From Escherichia coli (GTDB lineage: Bacteria; Pseudomonadota; Gammaproteobacteria; Enterobacterales; Enterobacteriaceae), in assembly GCF_001677475.2 (NCBI RefSeq), contig NZ_CP015229.1: DNA of 64,000 nt. The stretch is one strand, 5' to 3'. Position 1 is the first letter of the stretch. Each line of letters opens with the position of its first letter. Positions 7,588 through 58,274 of this stretch are shown piece by piece. The notes beneath the pieces are model-generated. The model saw only the letters and a program-made list of their open reading frames with translations. It was not told the DNA's origin and made no database searches. The position numbers were made by a program, and so were the translations under genes.

Positions 7588-8159
7588 TTGTTATTGCATA
7601 AAACCGCGCCATGTCTGCATATGGCGCGGGAATCATTGACTCGCTGTAAAAAATTATGCATATATTATATATGATTGTCATGTCATATCCTGCAATTCCT
7701 CTTGTATCACTTCATGATTTTATATTTTATTAATTAACGATTTTATTTTGTATTAGCTGAATGGATTCAGTCCTATAGTGTTATATATTTATTAATAAGA
7801 CGATTCTTATATTTTGATACCTAATAAGAGTTACCGCTTTTATCGGCTGTATATTAAATGTATTCCTCTTGCTTTTGTTTATATTTTGAGTTGATTTGAG
7901 TTCCTGGATACATATAATGCGCAGGTATTAGAGACTGGGAGGAATGTAATGATAAAGTTAAGAGTGTTAACTTAAAATAAGTTTTAAGTAATAACTTGCT
8001 ATTTTATTACCCTCTGAACTACATACTCAGATATGTGGTTGCCAATGCTATGCAAAATTTTTGAATTTTTATATGCGATGAACAGTAACCGGAATGGCAT
8101 TTAATGCGTTGCTGTTTATGCAATCTTAGTTTTATTTGGATGTATTGCTGGAGATTGTG

Positions 8160-11100
8160 ATGAATAAAATATATCGGCTAAAGTGGAACAGGTCCCGTAA
8201 CTGTTGGAGCGTCTGCTCTGAGCTGGGGAGCAGAGTAAAAGGAAAAAAGTCCCGGGCTGTTTTAATTAGCGCGATAAGTTTATATTCATCTCTGGTATTC
8301 GCCGATGATGTCATCGTAAACCAGGATAAAACTATTGATTTTGGCAAAGAGAACCAGAGCATCGATTACCGTATTACGGTGACTGACAATGCCAATCTGG
8401 TAATCAATGCGACAGATACTTCCCGTCCGCGTCTGACTCTCGCTTCTGGTGGTGGGTTGGATATTACCGGAGGAAAGGTAACAATCAATGGCCCACTTAA
8501 CTTTTTGCTGAAAGGTACGGGGTTCCTGAATGTCTCCAATGCTGGCAGCGAGTTATATGCTGATGATTTGTATGAGTCAAACTCAGGCATGAGACATGAT
8601 CGCGGCTATTTTAACGTCTCCAACGGCGGTAAAATCCATGTTAAGGGCACCAGCCGTCTGACCTATTTGCAGGGAAATGTCAGTGGTGAAGGCAGCCAGG
8701 TAAATTCTAAAACCTTCTTTATGGGCGTTTACGGCAGTTACGGTGGTAATCAGTACCTGTCAGTTAATAACGGCGGTGAAGTTAATGCCAGTGAGAAAAT
8801 TAGCCTGGGCTATTATGATCAAGTCTCCGATACAACACTTGCTGTTTCGGAAGGTGGTAAAATTTCTGCGCCGACTATTAGTTTAAGCACCAACTCTGAG
8901 TTAGCGTTAGGTGCACAGGAAGGAAGCGCTGCGAAGGCGGCAGGGATTATTGATGCCGAAAAAATTGAGTTTGTGTGGGCAAAGACATCCGATAAGAAAA
9001 TCACCTTAAACCACACGGATAAAAACGCGACTATTTCCGCGGATATTGTCAGTGGCAGCGAGGGCCTGGGCTATATCAATGCGCTCAATGGCACGACTTA
9101 CTTAACCGGGGATAACTCCGCCTTTAGCGGTAAAGTCAAAATTGAGCAAAATGGCGCTTTAGGGATCACCCAAAATATAGGTACAGCAGAGATCACCAAC
9201 CGCGGGAAATTACACCTGAAGGCTGAGGATAGCATGACCTTTGCCAATAAGATCTCCGGCAACGGTACAATAAGTATCGACAGTGGGACGGTGGAGTTGA
9301 CCGGCAATAACTATGCATTCTACGGATATATTGATGTTGCTTCCGATGCTGTAGCTGTTATTTCTGAAGACAAGAACATCGGCCGTGCAGAACTGGATGT
9401 TGATGGCAAACTGCAAATCAATGCCAATAAAGATTGGGTATTTGATAACGATCTTGAAGGTAGAGGCATTGTTGAAATAAACATGGGGAATCACGAATTC
9501 TCCTTCGATGAGTTTGCTTATACAGACTGGTTCCAGGGTTCACTGGCGTTCCAGAACACGACATTTAACCTGGAAAAGAATGCTGAGTTTCTTCAGAGAG
9601 GCGGGATCACTGCGGGTCAGGGAAGTCAGGTAACAGTAGGTAAGGGCGCTCATTCTATTAGCTCTCTGGGATTCTCCGGCGGAACCGTTGATTTTGGTGC
9701 CCTTGCAGCTGGTGCACAGATGACAGAAGGGACAGTCAACATTAGTAAAACGCTGGATTTGCGCGGCGAGGGTGTGATTCAGGTTTCTGACAGTGACGTT
9801 GTCCGCTCAGTATCTCGTGATATTGACTCTGCGTTATCGCTCACTGAAGTCGATGATGGTAACAGCACCATTAAGTTGGTTGATGCGCAAGGTGCGGAAG
9901 TTCTGGGCGATGCGGGCAATCTGCAATTGCAGGATAAAAATGGGCAAATCCTCTCCAGCAGCGCCCAACGTGATATTCAGCAGAATGGGCAAAAAGCGGC
10001 CGTCGGCACTTACGACTATCGTCTGACGAGTGGGGTAAACAATGACGGTCTGTATATCGGTTACGGCCTGACCCAGCTTGATTTACACGCTACCGACAGT
10101 GATGCCCTGGTGCTGAGCTCTAACGGTAAAAGCGAGAATGCCGCCGATCTCAGCGCAAAGATTACCGGCAGTGGTGACCTGGCATTCAGCAGCCAGAAGG
10201 GTCAGACCGTATCGCTTTCTAACAAAGACAACGACTATACCGGTGTTACCGATCTGCGCAGTGGGACGCTTTTGTTGAATAACGATAACGTGTTGGGTCA
10301 TACCCATGAACTGCGTCTGGCGGCAGAGACTGAACTGGATATGAATGGTTACAGCCAGATCGTGGGCACGCTCAATGGCAGCGCCGATTCACTGCTGAGC
10401 TTGAACGGCGGCAGTCTGACGGTTACCAACGGGGGCACTTCAACCGGTTCGTTAACGGGGAGCGGAGAGCTGAATATTCAGGGCGGCACGCTGGACATCG
10501 CGGGCGATAACAGCAACCTGACGGCGAATGTGAACATTGCTAATTCGGCTAATGTCCTGGTAAGTCATGCGCAGGGATTGGGTAGCGCAAACGTTGAGAA
10601 CAACGGTACCCTGGCGTTGAATAATAGCGCTGAAAAAAGAGCGGCTGCGTCTGTGAATTACACCCTGGGCGGCAATCTGACCAACAACGGTACGCTGATG
10701 ACCGGAATGTCAGGACAGCAAGCTGGCAATGTGTTAGTGGTGAAGGGGAACTACCACGGTAATAACGGTCAACTAGTAATGAATACGGTACTGAATGGCG
10801 ATGACTCAGTAACCGATAAATTGGTTGTCGAGGGCGATACTAGCGGCACGACTGCCGTTACGGTGAATAACGCTGGCGGTACAGGTGCGAAAACCCTTAA
10901 CGGTATCGAACTTATCCATGTAGATGGTAAGTCTGAGGGCGAATTTGTTCAGGCTGGGCGTATCGTTGCGGGGGCGTATGACTACACTCTCGCGCGTGGA
11001 CAAGGGGCAAATAGTGGTAACTGGTATCTGACCAGCGGCAGTGATTCTCCTGAACTGCAGCCGGAGCCAGACCCGATGCCGAATCCGGAGCCAAACCCGA

Positions 11101-12149
11101 CACCGAATCCGACACCAGAGCCGACGCCAGAGCCAACGCCTGTTCCTGACCAGACTCTGGATAATGACCTGCGCCCGGAGGCTGGTGGTTACATCGCGAA
11201 CCTTGCGGCAGCCAACACAATGTTAACCTCCCGACTGCATGAACGTCTGGGGAGCACATACTATACCGATCTGGTCACGGGTGAGCAGAAACAAACCACC
11301 ATGTGGATGCGTCATGAAGGGGGTCACAACAAATGGCGTGATGCAAGTGGCCAGTTGAAAACCCAAAGCAATCGCTATGTTCTGCAACTGGGGGGCGATA
11401 TCGCGCAGTGGAGTATAAGTGGCAACGACCGCTGGCATCTGGGGGTCATGGCTGGTTACGGTAACAGTGACAGCAAGACTATCTCATCGCGCACCGGTTA
11501 TCGAACTAAAGCAAGCGTGAATGGTTACAGCACGGGGTTATATGCGACCTGGTATGCGGATGATGAGTCACATAACGGGGCGTATCTCGACAGTTGGGCG
11601 CAGTACAGCTGGTTTGATAACACAGTGAAAGGGGATGACTTACAAAGTGAATCCTATAAATCAAAAGGATTTACCGCTTCACTGGAAGCTGGATACAAAC
11701 ACAAATTAGCTGAATTTAATGGCAGCCAGGGAACGCGTAATGAATGGTATGTTCAGCCGCAAGCACAGGTTACCTGGATGGGAGTCAAAGCCGATAAGCA
11801 CCGCGAAAGCAACGGAACCCTCGTTCATAGCAACGGTGATGGCAATGTTCAAACCCGACTTGGCGTAAAAACCTGGCTGAATAGCCACCATAAAATGGAT
11901 GACGGTAAATCCCGCGAGTTCCAGCCGTTTGTAGAAGTGAACTGGCTACATAACAGTAAGGATTTCAGCATCAGTATGGATGGCGTGTCCGTCACTCAGG
12001 ATGGAGCCCGAAATATTGCTGAGATAAAAACCGGGGTGGAAGGACAGCTAAATGCCAACCTGAATGTCTGGGGGAATGTGGGCGTTCAGGTTGCCGATAG
12101 GGGATATAATGACACCTCTGCAATGGTTGGCATTAAGTGGCAATTCTGA
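8160..12149 (+). CDS. ehaA: AIDA-I/EhaA-type autotransporter adhesin
   Basis: Extended autotransporter signal peptide (MNKIYRLKWNRSRNCW...), long repetitive beta-helix-like passenger, Pro-rich linker PEPDPMPNPEPNPTPNPTPEPTPEPTPVP, C-terminal beta-barrel ending ...GIKWQF; sits next to betT as ehaA does in O157 genomes (symbol from memory). Confidence 0.75.
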   Translation: MNKIYRLKWNRSRNCWSVCSELGSRVKGKKSRAVLISAISLYSSLVFADDVIVNQDKTIDFGKENQSIDYRITVTDNANLVINATDTSRPRLTLASGGGLDITGGKVTINGPLNFLLKGTGFLNVSNAGSELYADDLYESNSGMRHDRGYFNVSNGGKIHVKGTSRLTYLQGNVSGEGSQVNSKTFFMGVYGSYGGNQYLSVNNGGEVNASEKISLGYYDQVSDTTLAVSEGGKISAPTISLSTNSELALGAQEGSAAKAAGIIDAEKIEFVWAKTSDKKITLNHTDKNATISADIVSGSEGLGYINALNGTTYLTGDNSAFSGKVKIEQNGALGITQNIGTAEITNRGKLHLKAEDSMTFANKISGNGTISIDSGTVELTGNNYAFYGYIDVASDAVAVISEDKNIGRAELDVDGKLQINANKDWVFDNDLEGRGIVEINMGNHEFSFDEFAYTDWFQGSLAFQNTTFNLEKNAEFLQRGGITAGQGSQVTVGKGAHSISSLGFSGGTVDFGALAAGAQMTEGTVNISKTLDLRGEGVIQVSDSDVVRSVSRDIDSALSLTEVDDGNSTIKLVDAQGAEVLGDAGNLQLQDKNGQILSSSAQRDIQQNGQKAAVGTYDYRLTSGVNNDGLYIGYGLTQLDLHATDSDALVLSSNGKSENAADLSAKITGSGDLAFSSQKGQTVSLSNKDNDYTGVTDLRSGTLLLNNDNVLGHTHELRLAAETELDMNGYSQIVGTLNGSADSLLSLNGGSLTVTNGGTSTGSLTGSGELNIQGGTLDIAGDNSNLTANVNIANSANVLVSHAQGLGSANVENNGTLALNNSAEKRAAASVNYTLGGNLTNNGTLMTGMSGQQAGNVLVVKGNYHGNNGQLVMNTVLNGDDSVTDKLVVEGDTSGTTAVTVNNAGGTGAKTLNGIELIHVDGKSEGEFVQAGRIVAGAYDYTLARGQGANSGNWYLTSGSDSPELQPEPDPMPNPEPNPTPNPTPEPTPEPTPVPDQTLDNDLRPEAGGYIANLAAANTMLTSRLHERLGSTYYTDLVTGEQKQTTMWMRHEGGHNKWRDASGQLKTQSNRYVLQLGGDIAQWSISGNDRWHLGVMAGYGNSDSKTISSRTGYRTKASVNGYSTGLYATWYADDESHNGAYLDSWAQYSWFDNTVKGDDLQSESYKSKGFTASLEAGYKHKLAEFNGSQGTRNEWYVQPQAQVTWMGVKADKHRESNGTLVHSNGDGNVQTRLGVKTWLNSHHKMDDGKSREFQPFVEVNWLHNSKDFSISMDGVSVTQDGARNIAEIKTGVEGQLNANLNVWGNVGVQVADRGYNDTSAMVGIKWQF

Positions 12150-12290
12150 TCTGAATAATGAGTAAAAGGAGAGAGAGCCGAACGGGAGATAATTCGGCTC
12201 TCTGTGTCATTTTCTTGCAGCCAGCTTTATCAGTCAGAGTGAAGACTCGCAGATTTAGCTGGCGCACAAGATTTAATCAAGGTGTGTTCA

Positions 12291-13379
12291 ATGGCTTCGC
12301 ATGATTTGAGTGTTTTTTTGGAAGAGTTCGGGGCAACGGTGAATTTGACGTTGCCTGGTATCGTGTCCGAAAAAGAACGGCTTTTACTCAAGCTGCTAAT
12401 GGAGGGAATGTCGGTTACAGAAATCTCACAGTACAGAAATCGCAGTGCAAAGACAATTTCACATCAAAAGAAGCAGCTGTATGAAAAACTAGGCATCCAG
12501 AGTGATATTACCTTCTGGCGGGATATCTTTTTTCAATATCATCCGCAAATCAGCAGTGGCACGGGAAATAAAAATAATTTTTATATCCCTGATAACCGTT
12601 GTCACCATATAGTCACGCCTGAAGCCATCAGTCTGGCGTTGGAAAACCACGAATTCAAACCGTGGATCCAACCGGTTTTCTGCGCGCAGACTGGGGTACT
12701 GACGGGCTGTGAGGTGCTTGTCCGCTGGGAACATCCACAAACGGGAATTATCCCACCGGATCAGTTTATTCCTCTGGCGGAGTCATCTGGTCTTATCGTC
12801 ATAATGACTCGCCAGTTGATGAAACAGACTGCGGATATTCTGATGCCGGTAAAACATTTGCTGCCGGACAATTTCCATATTGGCATCAACGTCTCGGCGG
12901 GTTGTTTTTTGGCTGCGGGATTTGAAAAAGAGTGTCTGAACCTGGTTAAGAAATTAGGTAACGATAAAATCAAACTGGTTCTCGAGCTAACGGAACGTAA
13001 CCCTATTCCGGTAACGCCAGAAGCCAGAGCGATATTTGACAGCCTTCATCAGCACAACATTACCTTTGCGCTGGATGACTTTGGTACGGGTTATGCGACC
13101 TATCGTTACTTGCAGGCGTTTCCGGTCGATTTTATTAAGATCGATAAGTCATTTGTGCAAATGGCGAGCGTGGACGAAATATCCGGTCATATTGTGGACA
13201 ATATTGTCGAACTGGCGCGTAAGCCTGGTCTGAGTATCGTGGCGGAAGGGGTAGAAACCCAGGAGCAGGCGGATTTAATGATCGGCAAAGGCGTTCACTT
13301 TTTGCAGGGCTATTTGTACTCTCCGCCAGTACCGGGTAATAAATTTATCTCTGAATGGGTAATGAAAGCAGGTGGTTGA
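12291..13379 (+). CDS. pdeL: c-di-GMP phosphodiesterase with LuxR-type HTH and EAL domain
   Basis: 362-aa ORF; N-terminal LuxR-like HTH (LLLKLLMEGMSVTEISQYRNRSAKTISHQKK) and C-terminal EAL-domain motifs; conserved position after the bet locus. Confidence 0.85.
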   Translation: MASHDLSVFLEEFGATVNLTLPGIVSEKERLLLKLLMEGMSVTEISQYRNRSAKTISHQKKQLYEKLGIQSDITFWRDIFFQYHPQISSGTGNKNNFYIPDNRCHHIVTPEAISLALENHEFKPWIQPVFCAQTGVLTGCEVLVRWEHPQTGIIPPDQFIPLAESSGLIVIMTRQLMKQTADILMPVKHLLPDNFHIGINVSAGCFLAAGFEKECLNLVKKLGNDKIKLVLELTERNPIPVTPEARAIFDSLHQHNITFALDDFGTGYATYRYLQAFPVDFIKIDKSFVQMASVDEISGHIVDNIVELARKPGLSIVAEGVETQEQADLMIGKGVHFLQGYLYSPPVPGNKFISEWVMKAGG

Positions 13380-13420
13380 TGTAAACCGCTATTCACAGCG
13401 CATCGGGAGGTTGGCAGCGA

Positions 13421-14353
13421 TTAATTCTCCCGATGCAGTAAATCCTGATAGATCCCCGTTAATATGCCATTTGGCGAAAATTGTTTTTTAATCCACTGCG
13501 TCACCTGACCGGTGGCAGAGTGCTGGGTCGCCAGTAACATGCGTGAATCCTGGCGCGGATTATGGATTTGTCGGGTAACCAGCAGGGATTGCGCCATCGC
13601 CTCACGGACCATGTAATCCGGCAAAAAACCAATTCCTTCGCCTAAAATCTGGCACTGACATTTGGTGTTGAAATCTGGCACCAGAATCGACTCCTGCCCA
13701 TGCAGCAACCAGCCCACTTTTTTATTAATCGTATGCGCGGTGTCCTCCACCATGATATTAGGGTAGAGACGCAGCTGGCTTTCGGCGATCGGCTCCGGCA
13801 CAAAGGCTAATGGGTGATCCGGGGCGATAGCAAAAGCCCAGCGAATTGCGCCAATCTCCGTGTAATCAATGCCGCCGCCGTCCAGCAGTGTGTCGGGCGC
13901 GCCGATAGCAATATTCGCCTGATTATTAATAATCGCATCCCAGACGCCGTTATACACTTCGGTCGTCACGGTAATCTGGCAGGTTGGAAACTGCTTTTTC
14001 AGTACCTGTAATAAGCGTGCGGTGTGTTTGGGCGTATAAAGCAGTTGGTTAATACAAATGCGCACCCGTGCTTCTATACCCTGCGAAATAGTATCGATGC
14101 TGCGTTTGATGGCGTGAAAATCATTCAGCAGGTCGGTAGCTTTGCGGAAAAAATAACGCCCGGACTCCGTTAACTCAATGCTTCGGGTACTGCGAGTGAA
14201 CAGCACCACATCCAGCCCCGTCTCCATTCGCTTGATGGTGTAGCTAATGGCGGAAGTGGTTAAACCCAACTCTTCTGCGGCTTTACTGAAACTGCCAAAA
14301 CGCGCAGCGGTAGTAAATGCCAACAGATTCTCTTCGGTAAAAATTGAGTTCAT
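13421..14353 (-). CDS. yahB: LysR-family transcriptional regulator
   Basis: 310 aa; N-terminal LysR HTH (FSKAAEELGLTTSAISYTIKRME) and substrate-binding domain. Confidence 0.8.
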   Translation of the reverse strand: MNSIFTEENLLAFTTAARFGSFSKAAEELGLTTSAISYTIKRMETGLDVVLFTRSTRSIELTESGRYFFRKATDLLNDFHAIKRSIDTISQGIEARVRICINQLLYTPKHTARLLQVLKKQFPTCQITVTTEVYNGVWDAIINNQANIAIGAPDTLLDGGGIDYTEIGAIRWAFAIAPDHPLAFVPEPIAESQLRLYPNIMVEDTAHTINKKVGWLLHGQESILVPDFNTKCQCQILGEGIGFLPDYMVREAMAQSLLVTRQIHNPRQDSRMLLATQHSATGQVTQWIKKQFSPNGILTGIYQDLLHREN

Positions 14354-29841: not shown

Positions 29842-30252
29842 TTCAGAAAGGGTTCCACCTGTAAGGCGTTATTACACCAGAGAGTGAATCGCAAAGCAGG
29901 TAATCATTTCATCTGTATATCCGTATGCCAAATGGCATTCCACCGCCTTTTTCGCCGATATTTTGTTGTGATCGGCGACGCTTCGCTTAAAAAAGCACCA
30001 GCAGTGGTTTCGCAGCTATGCGGTGTATAAAAAATGATCTCATGCAGATGTTTTGTGAATGTGTGGGTTGACATTCATATGAAAAAAATCATAATTCCAT
30101 CATGTTTGTGTGGGGTCTTTTCTGTACCTTACGCATCGCACTCAAGCCTGACAGAAAATATGCTGTAAGGCTCATATCAAAACCGCCATTAGCTCATCAG
30201 GAAGAGCAGACGACAACCAGGATTGTTGTATGGTACGGGGTTCGAGGCCTCG

Positions 30253-30498
30253 ATGGCGGTCCAACTTTTCAAAACTCTTCTGAATCAGATCCCCTTATTA
30301 TCATCCCTGCAAAGTGGAACATTGCCATTGTTTGGCTATTCAGGACGGGTCAGACCAATGAAAAAAGCCCACACAGGGGAGAGTGGGCTGAAATGGGAAG
30401 CTAAAGACTCAAGTAAACTTATCGGAAATAAGGACCACGCATTACGGGGGCTATCATCGCCGATGGCCGGGATTCGGCAAATCAGGTTGATTACGTAG
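30253..30498 (+). CDS. yahM: small hypothetical protein
   Basis: 81-aa ORF from the second in-frame ATG of the 30223 track ORF; size matches the K-12 gene; weak SD. Confidence 0.4.
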   Translation: MAVQLFKTLLNQIPLLSSLQSGTLPLFGYSGRVRPMKKAHTGESGLKWEAKDSSKLIGNKDHALRGLSSPMAGIRQIRLIT

Positions 30499-51538: not shown

Positions 51539-53539
51539 ATGCTTAAATTTCGCCGCGATCTTAACGGTTACGGTGGAGTTATTAACGAAGGGCATAACGA
51601 TCAATACGAATTTGAAATTGCTTTCTCCAGTGAACAGCCTTATCAGCGCCAATTCTGGGATGAGCAAAATCAAGAAATGGTGGTATTAGATGAAATTCTG
51701 GTACATACACCGGAAGCGGTTGATCTGTCTCGTCTGAATAATAACGCTCCGTTGCTGTTCAATCACAATTTCGATAATCACATTGGTGTCGTTTGTAACG
51801 CTCGAATCGATGCGGATAACGTAGGTCGTGCTCTGGTTAAATTCTCCAAGCATGGGACTTTGGCTAATGATATTCGTAACAAAGTCATCGAAGGTACGAT
51901 GGAAAAAATTTCTGTCGGCTATGACATTAAAGAGTATCACATCGACTACGCCAAATCGCAACTCATTGTTTCTAAATGGATTCCTCACGAGGTTTCATGG
52001 GTCACGGTACCCGCAGACGACACAGTGGGTCTGAATCGCTCTCTAAATACTATCACAGTTAATTTGGAGGCTAAACGCGATATGACTAAAGAACAAATCG
52101 AAGAAATCAAAAACGAAGAAGCCGCTCCGGTTGAAGAAACTCCGGTAGAAGAAAATAAAGAACCGGAAGTTGAAGAAACTCAAGAGCGCCAAGTTGAAGA
52201 GAATAAAGAAAATGAAAATCTCGAAGACGGAAAAGACGCTGAACATCCTGAAAGTGTTGATGATGATAGTTCAACTGTTCGGGAAGAAGAAATAAAAGAA
52301 GAACGTGAAGCTGCTCCGGTTGAAGAAGAAAAAATTGAAGAAGTGGCTGAACGTTCCGAAGAAGACGAATTAGAAATCCGCGAGATCGCGCGGGAACTAA
52401 ATATTGATGACTCTGAATTAGCACGTGCATTGTCGATTAAAGACATGACGCCGGAAGCATTCCGCACTAAGGCACTAAATAATCTCGTCAATGCTCAACG
52501 TAATAACGAACAACAAATTAAGGACTCTAAAATGGAAAAAACTTTTGACCTGAACAACGTAATTCGCTCTCTGGTAGATGGTGCTGCTCTGGGTGCTAAC
52601 GAAGCTGAATATTCCGCTATGGCTGCTACTGCAACTATGCAGCGTGGTCGTGCTGCTCGTGGTGGCTCCGTATTCGTTCCGGCTGCTGCTCTGCGTGCTG
52701 CTGCTGCTGGTAACACTAAAGCTACTCTGGAAGCTGTAACCGACGAAAAACTGCTGACTGAATCCTACATCGAAATGCTGATGCCTCAGAGTGTTTTAGG
52801 CCGCCTCGGTGTGACCGTTCTGTCTGGTCTGAATAGCCCGATCGCTGTTCCGAAAATGACTGCTTCCAGCGTTGACGCTTTCGGCTTCGTTGATGAAAAC
52901 GGTGCTGCACCGGAAAGCAAAGCTCAGTTTGAAAACGTGAAAATGGCTCCTAAGACTTTCGCAGGTGGCAACCCGATCAGCCGTCAGTCTCTGAAAACCG
53001 TTCCGGGTATCGCTACCCTGATCACTGATCACATTAACAAAGCTGTTCGCATCAAACTGGAACAACTGATTCTGTCTGATAAAGCTAACGACCGTGGTCC
53101 GGCTGGTCTGGTTAAGCAACTGGTAGACGCGGGTCGCGTTACTAAGAAAGCCGCTTTCTCTTACAAAGACTTCCTGAAAGAAATTGCAGCACTGACCGAC
53201 GCTGGCGTTCCTGCTCAGGCGATCAAGTTTGCGATGAGCGGTGCAACTGCTGCTGAACTGGAATCTACCCTGAAAGATAACGGCGTTTCCGGTTATATCA
53301 TCGAAAACGGCAAACTGGCTGGTTACGAAGTAGTTACTTCTGGTGTTATCCCGGCAGACCACATCGTTCTGGGCGCGTTCGACGGTATCACCATTGGTGA
53401 GTGGGGCGGTCTGGAACTGGATATGGACGACACTACCTACCGTGCACAGTCTGCAATCGTTCCGCGTATCTGGGTAGATCTGGATTACGTTGTAACCCAG
53501 CCGGAAGCTCTGAAAGTTCTCCAGATTGGCGGTGAATGA
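51539..53539 (+). CDS. prohead protease - acidic scaffold - major capsid polyprotein (in-frame, with internal start at 52532)
   Basis: N-terminal S78-like protease motifs (APLLFNHNFDNHIGVV, SVGYD, VSWVTVPADD); E-rich linker; C-terminal ~335 aa with optimised codons and capsid-like composition; internal ATG at 52532 with AAGGA SD. Confidence 0.75.
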   Translation: MLKFRRDLNGYGGVINEGHNDQYEFEIAFSSEQPYQRQFWDEQNQEMVVLDEILVHTPEAVDLSRLNNNAPLLFNHNFDNHIGVVCNARIDADNVGRALVKFSKHGTLANDIRNKVIEGTMEKISVGYDIKEYHIDYAKSQLIVSKWIPHEVSWVTVPADDTVGLNRSLNTITVNLEAKRDMTKEQIEEIKNEEAAPVEETPVEENKEPEVEETQERQVEENKENENLEDGKDAEHPESVDDDSSTVREEEIKEEREAAPVEEEKIEEVAERSEEDELEIREIARELNIDDSELARALSIKDMTPEAFRTKALNNLVNAQRNNEQQIKDSKMEKTFDLNNVIRSLVDGAALGANEAEYSAMAATATMQRGRAARGGSVFVPAAALRAAAAGNTKATLEAVTDEKLLTESYIEMLMPQSVLGRLGVTVLSGLNSPIAVPKMTASSVDAFGFVDENGAAPESKAQFENVKMAPKTFAGGNPISRQSLKTVPGIATLITDHINKAVRIKLEQLILSDKANDRGPAGLVKQLVDAGRVTKKAAFSYKDFLKEIAALTDAGVPAQAIKFAMSGATAAELESTLKDNGVSGYIIENGKLAGYEVVTSGVIPADHIVLGAFDGITIGEWGGLELDMDDTTYRAQSAIVPRIWVDLDYVVTQPEALKVLQIGGE

Positions 53540-55346: not shown

Positions 55347-58274
55347 ATGCAATCAATCCAATTTAAACGAACTAGTGTTTCTGGCAAAAAACCTACGCCG
55401 GAACAATTACAGGTCGGTGAGGTAGCAATCAACCTTAAAGACCATGTTATTTTCACCAAAGACCGAGATAATGCCGTAGTTCAAATCTCTGTTTCTCCTG
55501 AAACTCACACTGCATTAGAAACTAAAGTTAATGCGAATAAGAAAGAATTAGACGGCAAGATTACTACAAATCACAACAATATTAACGCTAAAGTAGATGA
55601 AATTAAACAAACTACTGATGCAACTATCGCAGCAAATCACGCAGAAATTAACAATAAAGTTGATGTGATTAAGCGCGAAACCGATGCGACAATCACGGCT
55701 AATAAAAATAAAGCTGCTTCCGACCTTGCTGGCGTTAAAGCTGAATTGTCCGATACCATCACCGCTAATAAAAATGCGGCTGCTGTAGCAACTCAGGAAC
55801 TGGACACCCGCATCAATAAAAAAGTTGATGATAACAAAGCTAAAACTGATGCAACTATCGCCAGCAATCACAAAGCAATCAATGACAAAGTTGATTTGAT
55901 TAAGGCCGAGACTGACCGCACTATCGCAGCAAATAAAACATATGCTGATACTCAGCTAACTAATGCTACTAATGATCTGAATACTGTCATTGCTGCAAAT
56001 AAAAAAGAAGCTGCTGATAGCGTGGCTGCATTAACTAAGACTGTAAACACTAAAGATACAGCGATTCATAGAAAAGTTGACGAGAATAAAGCACTGACCG
56101 ACGCGGAATTATCCCGTTTGTCTGGACGACTTGAAGATGTTGCTAGTATTGGTCAAAACCGAGGCGAATTGCCAGTAGATGCTAATCTTGATCACTATGG
56201 TCCACGTTCAGAATTTGCTGGTATTTGGGGTAAATCGACTTCAACGAATGCACAACCAAGTCACAATTTCCCAGAAGAAAATGCTGTAGGTGTTCTGGAA
56301 GTTTTCACAGGCGGTCAATTCTCTGGGACTCAGCGTTATACAACACGCTACGGTAATATCTACATTCGTTCTCTTACCGCTACATGGAATGGTACTGATG
56401 GTCCGTGGTCGCCGTGGCGCAATATTCAGATGGGTACACGTCCGCTTTCGTCAACCATCGATCTTAATGATTTGGGTGGAGTTGAGCATTTTGGTTTATG
56501 GCGCAATAGCTCTAACTCAATTGCGGCTCTAGAAAGGAATTTCCCAGAAGCTGGGGCGATGGCACAAGGTCTTTTAGAAGTCTTTGAGGGTGGCAACTAC
56601 TCCCGCACTCAGCGTTATACGACCAGAATGGGCGTTGTATATGTTCGCTGTCTTGCTGCTGCATGGGATGCTAGTGCTCCTAAATGGGGTCCGTGGCAAC
56701 AAGTAGGTAATGTAACACCGTCTACTTTCTATGACGGAAACCTGAACAACTTCAAAACACCTGGTTTATATAACATTTTAGGCACTGACAAAGTTACTAA
56801 CCGTCCTGTTGCAGAAGGTGTTCCGGTTGAGATGACCGCATTGCTTGAGGTTAAACAGCGTGCTTCCGGTGGCGCTATTTTCCAACGTTTCACTACCGCA
56901 GGAACGGGAACTACTACCCGTGGTCGTGTTTTTGAACGTGCAATGACAAATAATATCTGGGGAGATTGGCACGAAGTACATACATCATATTCTATGCCAA
57001 TTACTTTAGGTATCGGTGGGATTAAAACACAATTAGAATCTTTAGATTGGCAAACTTTTGATTTTGTTCCTGGTAGCATGTTTAGCGTGCCATTGAATAA
57101 AATTACCAATATGCCAGCAAAAATGGATTGGGGAACAATTGACGGAAACCTGATCATGTTTTCCGTTGGTCCTAGTGAACACACTAGCACAGGGCGTACT
57201 GTTCAGGTTTGGCGTGGTACTGTGTCTCAAGCAAACTACCGTTATTTTGTTGTTCGTGTATTTGGTAATTCAGGAGAGAGAACTTGCACCGTTCGCCGTG
57301 TTGCTCTTGAGGATGGTCGCCATACATGGACAGCACAACAAGATTTTAACGGCGCGGTTAACTTCGGTGGGTCTGTTGTTAACTTTAAAACAGCCACTAA
57401 CTTTAATAACACTACCAGTTTTAAAACAGAAGCTAAATTTCTTTCATCTAATGCATTCCGTATGTATGGCGGTAATTTTGGTGCATTCTTGCGTAATGAT
57501 GGTGAAAGTGTTTATCTTCTTTCCACCAATGAAAATGATAAAGATGGAAACTATAATACAAATAGACCTTTCCGGTATCAGTTAAAAACTGGTGATGTTA
57601 CTTTGGGTGGAACTAGCGGTGCTGATATTTTAAGATTAAAAAGTAGTTCTCTTGCTGCTACCTTTGGCGGTGATGTTAATTTAAGTAAAGGCGTATTGAC
57701 GTTTGAAGCTGGCGGTAAGCAATCTCGCGATTATTTCCGGTTTAATCATTGGGGTGATAGCAATAAAGCTCGCGATAACATCATTCAGTTAGAAGATAGT
57801 AAAGGTGCTCATTTTTCCACTGAACGCACACTGGCAACGGGTGCAATCAAAACTAAGTTCTTTGGTGAAGTTGAATCCGATGGTCGATTAACTATTAAAC
57901 GTCCGGGTGATGCTATTGTATTATCGACTACAGCTAGCAACTCGTTGCATATTCGTGGTGATGTTGGTGGAAGCAATAACTGGTATATTGGTAAAGGTGG
58001 TGCTGATAATTCACTAGCATTTTATAGCTACGCAACTAAAGCGGGTATACACATCACAAATAATGGTGAGATATCATTTGCCCCGCAAAATTTTGCTGGT
58101 ATTAACATTAACAAAGACCGTATCTATATCAATGCTACACAATGGATTGCTAATCATTCCGGTTCATGGGATGGACAGTGGAGAGAAGAAGCACCCATCT
58201 TTATTGATCAGGGTAGTGTTGGACAAGATAGCTATTATCCTCTTATTAAAGGACATAGCCAGATCACAGGTTGA
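55347..58274 (+). CDS. long fibre / receptor-binding-like protein, 3' end interrupted by an IS3-family element
   Basis: 975 aa: N-terminal alpha-helical repeats (TDATIAANH..., TDATITANKN..., TDATIASNHK...), then three ~55-aa tandem domains (…TQRYTTRYGNIYIRSL…, …TQRYTTRMGVVYVRCL…, …FQRFTTAGTGTTTRGRVFERAM…); stop codon TGA is the first 3 nt of the IS. Confidence 0.6.
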   Translation: MQSIQFKRTSVSGKKPTPEQLQVGEVAINLKDHVIFTKDRDNAVVQISVSPETHTALETKVNANKKELDGKITTNHNNINAKVDEIKQTTDATIAANHAEINNKVDVIKRETDATITANKNKAASDLAGVKAELSDTITANKNAAAVATQELDTRINKKVDDNKAKTDATIASNHKAINDKVDLIKAETDRTIAANKTYADTQLTNATNDLNTVIAANKKEAADSVAALTKTVNTKDTAIHRKVDENKALTDAELSRLSGRLEDVASIGQNRGELPVDANLDHYGPRSEFAGIWGKSTSTNAQPSHNFPEENAVGVLEVFTGGQFSGTQRYTTRYGNIYIRSLTATWNGTDGPWSPWRNIQMGTRPLSSTIDLNDLGGVEHFGLWRNSSNSIAALERNFPEAGAMAQGLLEVFEGGNYSRTQRYTTRMGVVYVRCLAAAWDASAPKWGPWQQVGNVTPSTFYDGNLNNFKTPGLYNILGTDKVTNRPVAEGVPVEMTALLEVKQRASGGAIFQRFTTAGTGTTTRGRVFERAMTNNIWGDWHEVHTSYSMPITLGIGGIKTQLESLDWQTFDFVPGSMFSVPLNKITNMPAKMDWGTIDGNLIMFSVGPSEHTSTGRTVQVWRGTVSQANYRYFVVRVFGNSGERTCTVRRVALEDGRHTWTAQQDFNGAVNFGGSVVNFKTATNFNNTTSFKTEAKFLSSNAFRMYGGNFGAFLRNDGESVYLLSTNENDKDGNYNTNRPFRYQLKTGDVTLGGTSGADILRLKSSSLAATFGGDVNLSKGVLTFEAGGKQSRDYFRFNHWGDSNKARDNIIQLEDSKGAHFSTERTLATGAIKTKFFGEVESDGRLTIKRPGDAIVLSTTASNSLHIRGDVGGSNNWYIGKGGADNSLAFYSYATKAGIHITNNGEISFAPQNFAGININKDRIYINATQWIANHSGSWDGQWREEAPIFIDQGSVGQDSYYPLIKGHSQITG

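Follow-up and report, generated by a model that had tools for sequence, protein, structure and literature searches.

In a 64,000-nucleotide stretch of Escherichia coli DNA (contig NZ_CP015229.1 of assembly GCF_001677475.2; hereafter the window), the interval between betT and pdeL contains ehaA, the gene for an autotransporter adhesin. This region is the ehaA locus, O-island 15 (OI-15) of E. coli O157:H7, intact and at its usual place, and as such it has already been described. The sole point that appears to be new is that the AT-rich leader in front of ehaA seems, from its sequence, to bear the control elements that drive pdeL in E. coli K-12; in the literature searched, no paper was found that links ehaA with pdeL or Cra. 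The locus itself belongs to textbook genomics of enterohaemorrhagic E. coli (EHEC), and it is the regulatory reading that could matter. Taken as a whole, an account in which the known EhaA of OI-15 would be controlled from a pdeL-type promoter, the ehaA haplotype is shared with other Escherichia and a nearby insertion sequence (IS) represents a separate event is, in our judgement, probable.

Identity, borders and distribution of the locus

The first 14 kb of the window contain betA, betB, betI (minus strand), betT, the IS, the remainder of betT, a 572-bp spacer, an open reading frame (ORF) of 1329 amino acids, pdeL, yahB and yahC. Alignment with the K-12-type locus delimited a variable segment of 4648 bp on the plus strand (7628–12275), which stands in place of an 820-bp segment containing yahV in K-12-type genomes. 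Its left border (7627/7628) lies immediately past the stem of the betT terminator and is sharp, with betT 97–100% identical between the two haplotypes as far as the terminator; its right border (12275/12276) lies 15 bp ahead of the pdeL ATG. The segment was matched to positions 379201–383843 of ATCC 43894, and OI-15 of EDL933 has been reported as 379203–383845, 4643 bp, with ehaA (z0402) as its sole ORF (PMC8565820). As the segment equals the published O-island 15, the feature was already known. In agreement, when 5426 complete E. coli genomes were searched with megablast, the gene was labelled 'autotransporter adhesin EhaA' and flanked by betT and pdeL, and the homologous gene of the betT–pdeL interval carries the same name in RefSeq. 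The placement of the gene between betT and pdeL in the preliminary description of this DNA, which had been made from the letters alone, was correct.

A terminator-like hairpin of betT (7604–7629, plus strand) was recognised by a hairpin scan and by comparison with the K-12-type locus. Its stem is common to both haplotypes, and the T-rich tail of K-12, TGTTTCTCCT, is exchanged for GGGAATCATT in the ehaA haplotype (window 7604–7640); read-through from betT toward the ehaA promoter region is therefore conceivable.

Among the 5426 complete genomes, the ehaA segment was found in 1422 (26%), of which 1385 have 80% or more of its length, and the alternative 820-bp segment with the small gene yahV in 3811; betT is present in 5196. 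Because both segments together cover essentially every betT-bearing genome, the locus looks mainly biallelic. The comparison of this junction across E. coli that the preliminary description had called for thus revealed a segment that is not universal. Its proposal of an accessory hotspot holds in so far as the segment is variable, and fails in so far as the variation is mainly between two alleles, with three other rearrangements (in E. whittamii, E. albertii and E. coli UTME-7). A natural deletion in UTME-7 has removed pdeL entirely, together with the 3' half of ehaA, so that the truncated ehaA is joined to yahB. A secondary event, an IS1 within the K-12-type segment, was also seen (H71). A 5.1-kb contig assigned to a 'Collinsella sp.' metagenome-assembled genome (JAIJJM010000200.1) is 95.7% identical to the window over the ehaA leader, ehaA and the start of pdeL, and is almost certainly a mis-binned Escherichia contig.

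The ehaA leader and its pdeL-type promoter elements

The 572 bp that separate the betT stop (7587) from the ehaA ATG (8160) have a GC content of 30.9% and hold the lowest-GC 500 bp of the window (28.8%, starting at 7641, for a window mean of 48.0% and a standard deviation of 7%); a GC content of 31% or less is found in only 0.24% of all 500-bp stretches. The extreme AT-richness noticed upstream of the gene in the preliminary description was thus borne out. Within this interval, a putative regulatory region of 532 bp 5' of ehaA (7628–8159, plus strand, 29.7% GC) appears to be homologous to, though diverged from, the promoter region of K-12 pdeL. The leaders of the two haplotypes can be aligned solely in short collinear blocks, and their local similarity score was matched by 2 of 300 shuffles.

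These blocks include a 17-nt Cra box, GCTGAATGGATTCAGTC, on the plus strand at 7756–7772, which has the same letters as the Cra box of the K-12 pdeL promoter used experimentally. It occurs once in the window (0.00 copies expected) and was found in 10 loci across both haplotypes, being identical in K-12-type, O157 and other E. coli loci and in E. whittamii. A palindrome, ATAAG-N6-CTTAT, follows at 7795–7810 (plus strand), as at the centre of the K-12 'CIB' PdeL-binding fragment; one copy is present in the window (0.07 expected) and exactly one in each of 11 loci of both haplotypes. Further downstream, a predicted core sigma-70 promoter, TTGATT-16-TATAAT (7891–7918, plus strand), agrees with 10 of 12 consensus positions and has TTGATC-16-TATAAT as its counterpart at K-12 pdeL. 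It was the top promoter-like site in a scan of 7500–12400, and the 33-nt motif in which it is embedded, AGTTGATYTG-N9-ATNCATATAATGCG (7889–7921), is single-copy in the window and present in 12 of 12 loci, including those of E. whittamii and E. albertii. The spacing from the Cra box to the -10 element is 155 bp in the window and 158 bp in K-12.

The same blocks can be recognised in the DNA fragments of a published study of the K-12 pdeL (yahA) promoter (Table S4, bioRxiv 10.1101/2021.10.01.462762). The 'CB CDB' oligonucleotide used there in electrophoretic mobility shift assays (EMSA), TGCTGAATGGATTCAGTCTTAATGAGTGGG, agrees with the Cra box block, whereas the 'RNAP interaction' primer, which is the reverse complement of CATATAATGCGCCTTTGCTC and ends on CATATAATGCGC, agrees with the core promoter block. 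The CIB fragment (6276–6344 of the K-12 locus, L002), centred on AATAAG-TTTAGT-CTTATT, agrees with the palindrome block, the K-12 copy of the palindrome lying inside this EMSA fragment at 6291–6306. According to the same study, the K-12 pdeL promoter is co-activated by Cra and PdeL at low cyclic di-GMP (c-di-GMP) and silenced by H-NS (bioRxiv 10.1101/2021.10.01.462762).

The promoter regions of the window and of K-12 pdeL are therefore alike in the 17-nt Cra box, the palindrome, a near-identical core promoter and a GC content of about 30–33%. They differ in that the sequence outside the blocks cannot be aligned, that about 200 bp of the K-12 leader, including the CIB position and yahV, have no counterpart in the ehaA leader, and that the first gene downstream is ehaA in the window. 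The recognition helix region of PdeL is the same in both alleles. A Rfam scan of 4000–13500 at E ≤ 1 revealed no RNA family in the leader, in the IS ends or in the spacer between ehaA and pdeL.

As the leader keeps the Cra box, the palindrome and the core promoter defined for K-12 pdeL, we infer that ehaA would be transcribed from a pdeL-type promoter under the control of Cra, PdeL (c-di-GMP) and H-NS. Transcription would probably start at the promoter at 7891–7918, which, together with the Cra box and the palindrome, would be the counterpart of the elements that drive pdeL in K-12; the gene would be activated by Cra and PdeL at low c-di-GMP and silenced by H-NS, as K-12 pdeL is. Silencing of the leader by H-NS is plausible because the homologous promoter region of K-12 is experimentally H-NS-repressed.

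The ehaA–pdeL spacer and the 5' part of pdeL

The ehaA stop and the start of pdeL are separated by 141 bp. This spacer contains a strong, GC-rich hairpin (12172–12203, plus strand) with a stem of 11–12 bp followed by GUGUCAUUUUCUU, an imperfect U-tract (intergenic fold z = -3.2), which is kept in E. coli and shows one uncompensated change in E. whittamii; it is possibly a weak terminator between the two genes. A promoter scan found nothing between 8819 and the pdeL start that agrees with 9 or more of the 12 consensus positions. Lying behind a hairpin of this kind and with no recognisable promoter of its own, pdeL may be partly co-transcribed with ehaA.

The pdeL gene (12291–13379, plus strand) encodes a LuxR-type helix-turn-helix (HTH) and an EAL domain according to Pfam. 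Its first ~400 bp (to ~12680) show 74–91% identity to K-12 per 100 bp, followed by 96–100% in the remainder, so that the divergence continues past 12275 and this part of pdeL falls, with ehaA, into one deeply diverged haplotype block. At the protein level, two deeply diverged allele types were seen in the N-terminal part of PdeL (the first 24 amino acids and the linker, amino acids 84–104; window 12291–12680), around an HTH core that is nearly invariant, and the allele type tracks the presence or absence of ehaA in all loci examined.

The EhaA protein

In the program-made ORF list, the gene extends from a TTG at 8136 to 12149 (1337 amino acids). Its start was placed at the ATG at 8160, which opens the ESPR signal peptide and is the ehaA start in RefSeq for homologous loci; this gives an intact coding sequence (CDS) at 8160–12149 (plus strand) for 1329 amino acids. 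Pfam searches identified the ESPR (PF13018, amino acids 1–38, 8160–8273, E = 6.6e-10, 39.7 bits for a cut-off of 25 bits), an autochaperone (PF18883, AC_1, amino acids 839–944, 10674–10991, E = 3.8e-28) and a beta-barrel (PF03797, amino acids 1048–1307, 11301–12080, E = 3.8e-46). Between the last two lies a Pro-rich PEP/PNP linker (amino acids ~962–1009, ~11043–11186), made of 24-nt repeats at 11061–11144. The protein matches TIGR01414 with 417 bits, and the closest solved structures are the beta-domain of AIDA-I (4MEE, E = 9e-90) and the autochaperone of IcsA (3ML3, E = 1.3e-28). With a Sec signal, an autochaperone and a C-terminal barrel, EhaA is to be classed, on its domain content, as a classical (type Va) autotransporter adhesin of the AIDA-I type. 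The passenger holds degenerate repeats (family D1), which are compatible with a beta-helix without being proof of it.

Over the full length, EhaA of the window and O157 EhaA (1329 versus 1327 amino acids) share 96.8% identity, with 2 gap positions. The domains and this identity support the preliminary description, which had recognised a 1329-residue EhaA/AIDA-type autotransporter with a Pro-rich PEP/PNP linker. Compared with the locus of EHEC O157:H7 (Z0402/ECs0362), position between betT and pdeL, borders, size (4648 versus 4643 bp) and domain order are alike; in the window, however, the linker is two residues longer, a patch of ~480 bp has just ~80–85% identity with every E. coli allele, the neighbouring betT is interrupted by an IS, and no complete E. 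coli genome is more than 97.6% identical to the host genome. With AIDA-I of diarrhoeagenic E. coli, EhaA shares the type Va architecture and a homologous autochaperone, linker and barrel (NCBIfam AIDA-I match at amino acids 1003–1329), but its passenger is not AIDA-I-like, the NCBIfam AIDA-I score is 336 for a cut-off of 1200, and ehaA lacks an adjoining glycosyltransferase (aah-like) gene.

An intact ehaA ORF of 1327–1333 amino acids is retained across E. coli and E. whittamii, and the ratio of nonsynonymous to synonymous divergence (dN/dS) of the gene is 0.11–0.125; ehaA is under purifying selection. O157 EhaA is described in the literature as causing aggregation, the formation of biofilms and adherence to bovine rectal cells (PMC8565820, citing Wells 2008 and Yin 2009), and for the orthologue there are published phenotypes of overexpression and, in pig ileal loops, of deletion (PMC8565820). 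Judging by the order of its domains and by what is known of the family, EhaA would be carried over the inner membrane by its ESPR signal peptide, the C-terminal 12-stranded beta-barrel would be inserted in the outer membrane, and the passenger, assisted by the autochaperone, would be exported through or alongside the barrel and remain on the cell surface, where it would promote aggregation, biofilm formation and adhesion as does its O157 orthologue.

The divergent patch lies, sharply bounded, at 11100–11580 (plus strand) and covers the end of the linker, the alpha-helix and the first barrel strands (amino acids ~981–1140). Its identity is 58–92% per 60 nt between flanks of 100%, and its synonymous divergence (dS) is ~1.0 from both O157 and E. 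whittamii, compared with 0.03–0.07 outside the patch. No match above 85.8% was found for it in any complete E. coli genome; neither the 1393 ehaA-bearing genomes nor E. whittamii contain it, and a search for the donor by protein returned fragments only and no closer allele. The patch looks like a recombination tract.

Origin of the ehaA haplotype

The ehaA CDS has a GC content of 49.5%, close to the window mean, and the alternative segment of K-12 has 33.2%. AT-richness is therefore no sign of foreign origin here; it belongs to the intergenic region in both haplotypes. Of the composition test proposed in the preliminary description, a deviation from the surroundings was obtained for the leader (29.7%) and not for the ehaA CDS. 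Neither direct repeats at 7628/12275 nor an integrase nor a border tRNA was found, the single tRNA of the window being at 30183. Together with the synteny in other Escherichia, these observations speak against the use of AT-richness as a mark of horizontal acquisition in that description.

A scan of species-representative genomes, which was pattern-based and recovers close relatives only, yielded a full-length syntenic orthologue in E. whittamii, with 91.7% nucleotide identity over ehaA and its leader, pdeL, and yahB onward, and, in E. albertii NBRC 107761, the promoter block and the hairpin with pdeL, along with ehaA remnants that amount to ~700 bp. In this E. albertii strain (L021, 1–1185), ehaA is down to three short remnants between the promoter block and the hairpin with pdeL, an independent loss by which the promoter was brought close to pdeL. 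In its pdeL, the EAL part has diverged from E. coli to an unusual degree (dS ~1.4, versus 0.44 for the N-terminal part). In E. whittamii (L005, 1–5430), betABIT is absent from this place; of betT, the final ~25 bp remain with the terminator, bordered on one side by lutA/lutB-like (ykgEF-type) genes and leading on into the ehaA leader.

Between E. coli and E. whittamii, dS is 0.29 for ehaA and 0.26–0.29 for the EAL part of pdeL. Over nucleotides 1–330 of pdeL, the ehaA-type alleles of E. coli, E. whittamii and E. albertii are mutually 88–92% identical (92% for E. whittamii, 88% for E. albertii), whereas the K-12 and B2 type is ~80% identical to every ehaA-type allele. In the same 5' part, dS is 0.84–1.06 between types (0.84 between the E. 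coli haplotypes) and 0.36–0.44 between species within the ehaA type, and dN/dS between types is ~0.15, which points to an old divergence and not to an adaptive burst. Sensitive blastn and tblastx searches for ehaA remnants in the 820-bp segment of K-12 returned the Cra box and promoter blocks only, with no coding remnant; K-12 is therefore not derived by a mere recent deletion. In Citrobacter, Trabulsiella, Yokenella and Leminorella, the more distant EhaA-like autotransporters have no pdeL-like neighbour.

Because the K-12-type haplotype is the divergent outlier and ehaA is syntenic in other Escherichia, the ehaA-bearing haplotype looks, with moderate confidence, vertically inherited and ancestral rather than recently acquired. 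With the same moderate confidence, the K-12 haplotype without ehaA would be a very old or introgressed alternative allele and not an ancestral empty site.

An IS110-family element in betT

The betT gene is split by an IS110-family element of 1377 bp, including the CT core, on the minus strand (5812–7188). The 5' part of betT (4177–5811, plus strand) comprises codons 1–545, as aligned to intact betT up to 5811, and contains an intact BCCT domain (Pfam, E = 1.6e-176); its ORF extends to 5841 with a 9-amino-acid tail derived from the IS. The 3' part (7189–7587, plus strand) comprises codons 546–677, is 97.8% identical to the K-12-type betT 3' end and is annotated as a betT fragment in ARS-C301. 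BetT is thus truncated past its BCCT domain, with loss of a C-terminal tail of 132 amino acids, and the split may have altered choline uptake rather than abolished it.

The transposase CDS (5996–6982, 328 amino acids) has a DEDD/RuvC-like N-terminal domain (PF01548, E = 8e-25) and the IS110 C-terminal domain (PF02371, E = 8e-19), and exceeds the cut-off of NF033542, 'IS110 family RNA-guided transposase' (213 versus 140 bits). Intact betT reads ...ACTAAACAG-ATGATGG... at the insertion site, between codons 545 and 546, and AG (CT on the transposase strand) is found at both IS junctions. Neither a target-site duplication nor terminal inverted repeats were seen at the junctions by eye, no formal repeat search having been made. 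In complete E. coli genomes, the IS is plasmid-borne in 292 of 298 places, and the three copies that were fetched adjoin a small gene annotated as ssb or hypothetical. The plasmid site (CCATCAT-CT-GTTGAGT) and the betT site (CCATCAT-CT-GTTTAGT) have 15 of 16 positions in common, with CT at both junctions. Insertions within betT were found in two complete genomes, ARS-C301 (ehaA-positive, with a further plasmid copy) and AH19B041 (ehaA-negative, with a different transposase variant), which makes the betT insertions independent and target-directed. No second copy of the IS was found in the window. The insertion in betT is best regarded as a separate event, in which a plasmid-borne, sequence-specific IS would have landed in a look-alike site, CCATCAT-CT-GTT[T/G]AGT.

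Bridge-RNA-guided recombinases of the IS621/IS110 family have reportedly been described by Durrant et al. and by Hiraizumi et al. in 2024. The element of the window resembles them in its DEDD transposase, its IS110 C-terminal domain and the CT core at both junctions, and differs from IS621 in being another element, AT-rich and normally plasmid-borne next to ssb, whose bridge RNA is predicted from one fold. Its non-coding left end (6983–7188; z = -2.8, single-sequence fold, no Rfam match) is predicted to form a stem around a loop with CCCCAUCAUCU, a hairpin and GUCAACAG. As CCCCAUCAUCU corresponds to the left target plus core and GUCAACAG to the reverse complement of the right plasmid target, the predicted layout is as expected of the target loop of a bridge RNA.

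The preliminary description had placed this element next to the island and suggested that it might alter expression of the adhesin. It lies inside betT, ~440 bp left of the island border, and not between betT and ehaA. Moreover, it is transcribed away from ehaA, ends 568 bp from the Cra box, and is separated from the leader by the 399-bp betT 3' fragment and the hairpin, on account of which an effect on ehaA expression is unlikely.

Alternative explanations and implications

The regulatory reading can be stated for all strains that carry the gene. In ehaA-positive strains (a quarter of E. coli, including O157:H7 and major non-O157 E. coli that make Shiga toxin (STEC)) and in E. whittamii, ehaA would lie directly behind a bistable promoter, activated by Cra and PdeL and silenced by H-NS, which up to now has been studied as the pdeL promoter of K-12 only. 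The pair ehaA–pdeL would then be an ancestral Escherichia unit in which a surface adhesin is coupled both to carbon-flux sensing and to a phosphodiesterase and regulator that senses c-di-GMP, and the K-12 promoter would represent a haplotype, derived or introgressed, from which the adhesin has been lost. We advance this proposal tentatively and put its chances at somewhat short of even. Several points weigh against the overall account of the locus. The promoter, Cra and PdeL-box assignments are inferred from homology to K-12 elements. In the window, the palindrome is found 24 bp from the Cra box on the promoter-proximal side, but in K-12 196 bp distal (upstream) to it, and the Cra-adjacent CDB of K-12 is partly conserved (~6 of 8 positions, by eye on the cross-haplotype alignment), for which reasons regulation could differ from that of K-12. 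If the hairpin after ehaA were an efficient terminator, pdeL would need an unrecognised promoter. Finally, the ancestral state, held with moderate confidence, is deduced from two other species and, for dS, from one 330-nt region.

In a different scenario, the K-12 arrangement would be ancestral and ehaA would have been inserted long ago into the 5' leader of pdeL, so that the shared elements serve pdeL while ehaA rides along or has a separate unrecognised promoter. Such an insertion would fit the functional definition of the common elements, established for pdeL only, as well as the right border just 15 bp ahead of the pdeL start and the EhaA-like autotransporters of Citrobacter and Trabulsiella without an adjoining pdeL. 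It accords poorly with the presence of the ehaA-type haplotype in all three Escherichia species sampled, with ehaA-type distances in pdeL that follow the expected order (92% for E. whittamii, then 88% for E. albertii) while the K-12 type stands ~80% (dS 0.84–1.06) from all, and with the lack of any K-12-type leader trace flanking ehaA; we consider it unlikely. Decidedly unlikely, and largely refuted, is the view that goes back to the preliminary description, of a foreign adhesin brought in recently on an AT-rich island at a betT–pdeL hotspot, H-NS-silenced as foreign and possibly modulated by the IS110 element. The ordinary GC content of the CDS, the K-12 alternative that is just as AT-rich, the lack of border repeats, tRNA and integrase, the syntenic E. 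whittamii orthologue with flank-like dS, the E. albertii remnant and the distribution of nearly all genomes over two haplotypes are set here against a variable presence (26% of complete E. coli genomes), a strongly AT-rich 5' region and the name 'O-island' used in the literature. An IS is indeed found less than 1 kb away, but it sits inside betT by target specificity, is also there in an ehaA-negative strain and points away from ehaA.

It is very improbable, finally, that ehaA is a silent relic, whose reading frame is intact by chance or whose expression was disabled only recently, and which makes no contribution, with the upstream blocks acting on other transcripts only. Strong repression of the homologous K-12 promoter by H-NS in laboratory conditions and the natural losses represented by the E. 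albertii remnant and the UTME-7 truncation would agree with this idea; the intact ORF of 1327–1333 amino acids across E. coli and E. whittamii with a dN/dS of ~0.12, the retention of at least 80% of the segment in 1385 genomes, and the published phenotypes of the orthologue on deletion, in pig ileal loops, and on overexpression (PMC8565820) argue against it.

If a pdeL-type promoter does drive ehaA, EhaA in STEC would be switched by c-di-GMP via PdeL, by glycolytic flux via Cra and by H-NS, which would open a testable route to the conditions under which EhaA is made in cattle. The 'digital switch' model of K-12 PdeL would then cover just one of two ancient haplotypes. In more general terms, an 'O-island', being defined against K-12, can be the ancestral state.

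Other features of the window

A divergent Escherichia lineage seems to be the source of the window. Over 13400–38000 (24.6 kb, mostly core), the best identity among the 5426 complete E. coli genomes is 97.5–97.6%. Compared with ARS-C301, betA and betB are 91–95% identical, and a near-identical stretch at ~5600–8600 is common to the window and that genome.

A tRNA-Ser(GGA) was predicted by ARAGORN at 30183–30263, near a low-GC stretch at ~28.6–29.3 kb and an accessory sugar ABC-transporter cluster; we know of no tRNA at that position in K-12. Past prpE, a prophage occupies ~39000–62000, with several low-GC stretches at 41–44 kb. It encodes a Rha-family regulator (45463–46302), a terminase large subunit (47497–49401), a lambda-type portal (49982–51490), a protease-capsid fusion (51539–53536), a tail-fibre protein (55347–58271) and a large serine recombinase (60012–61706).

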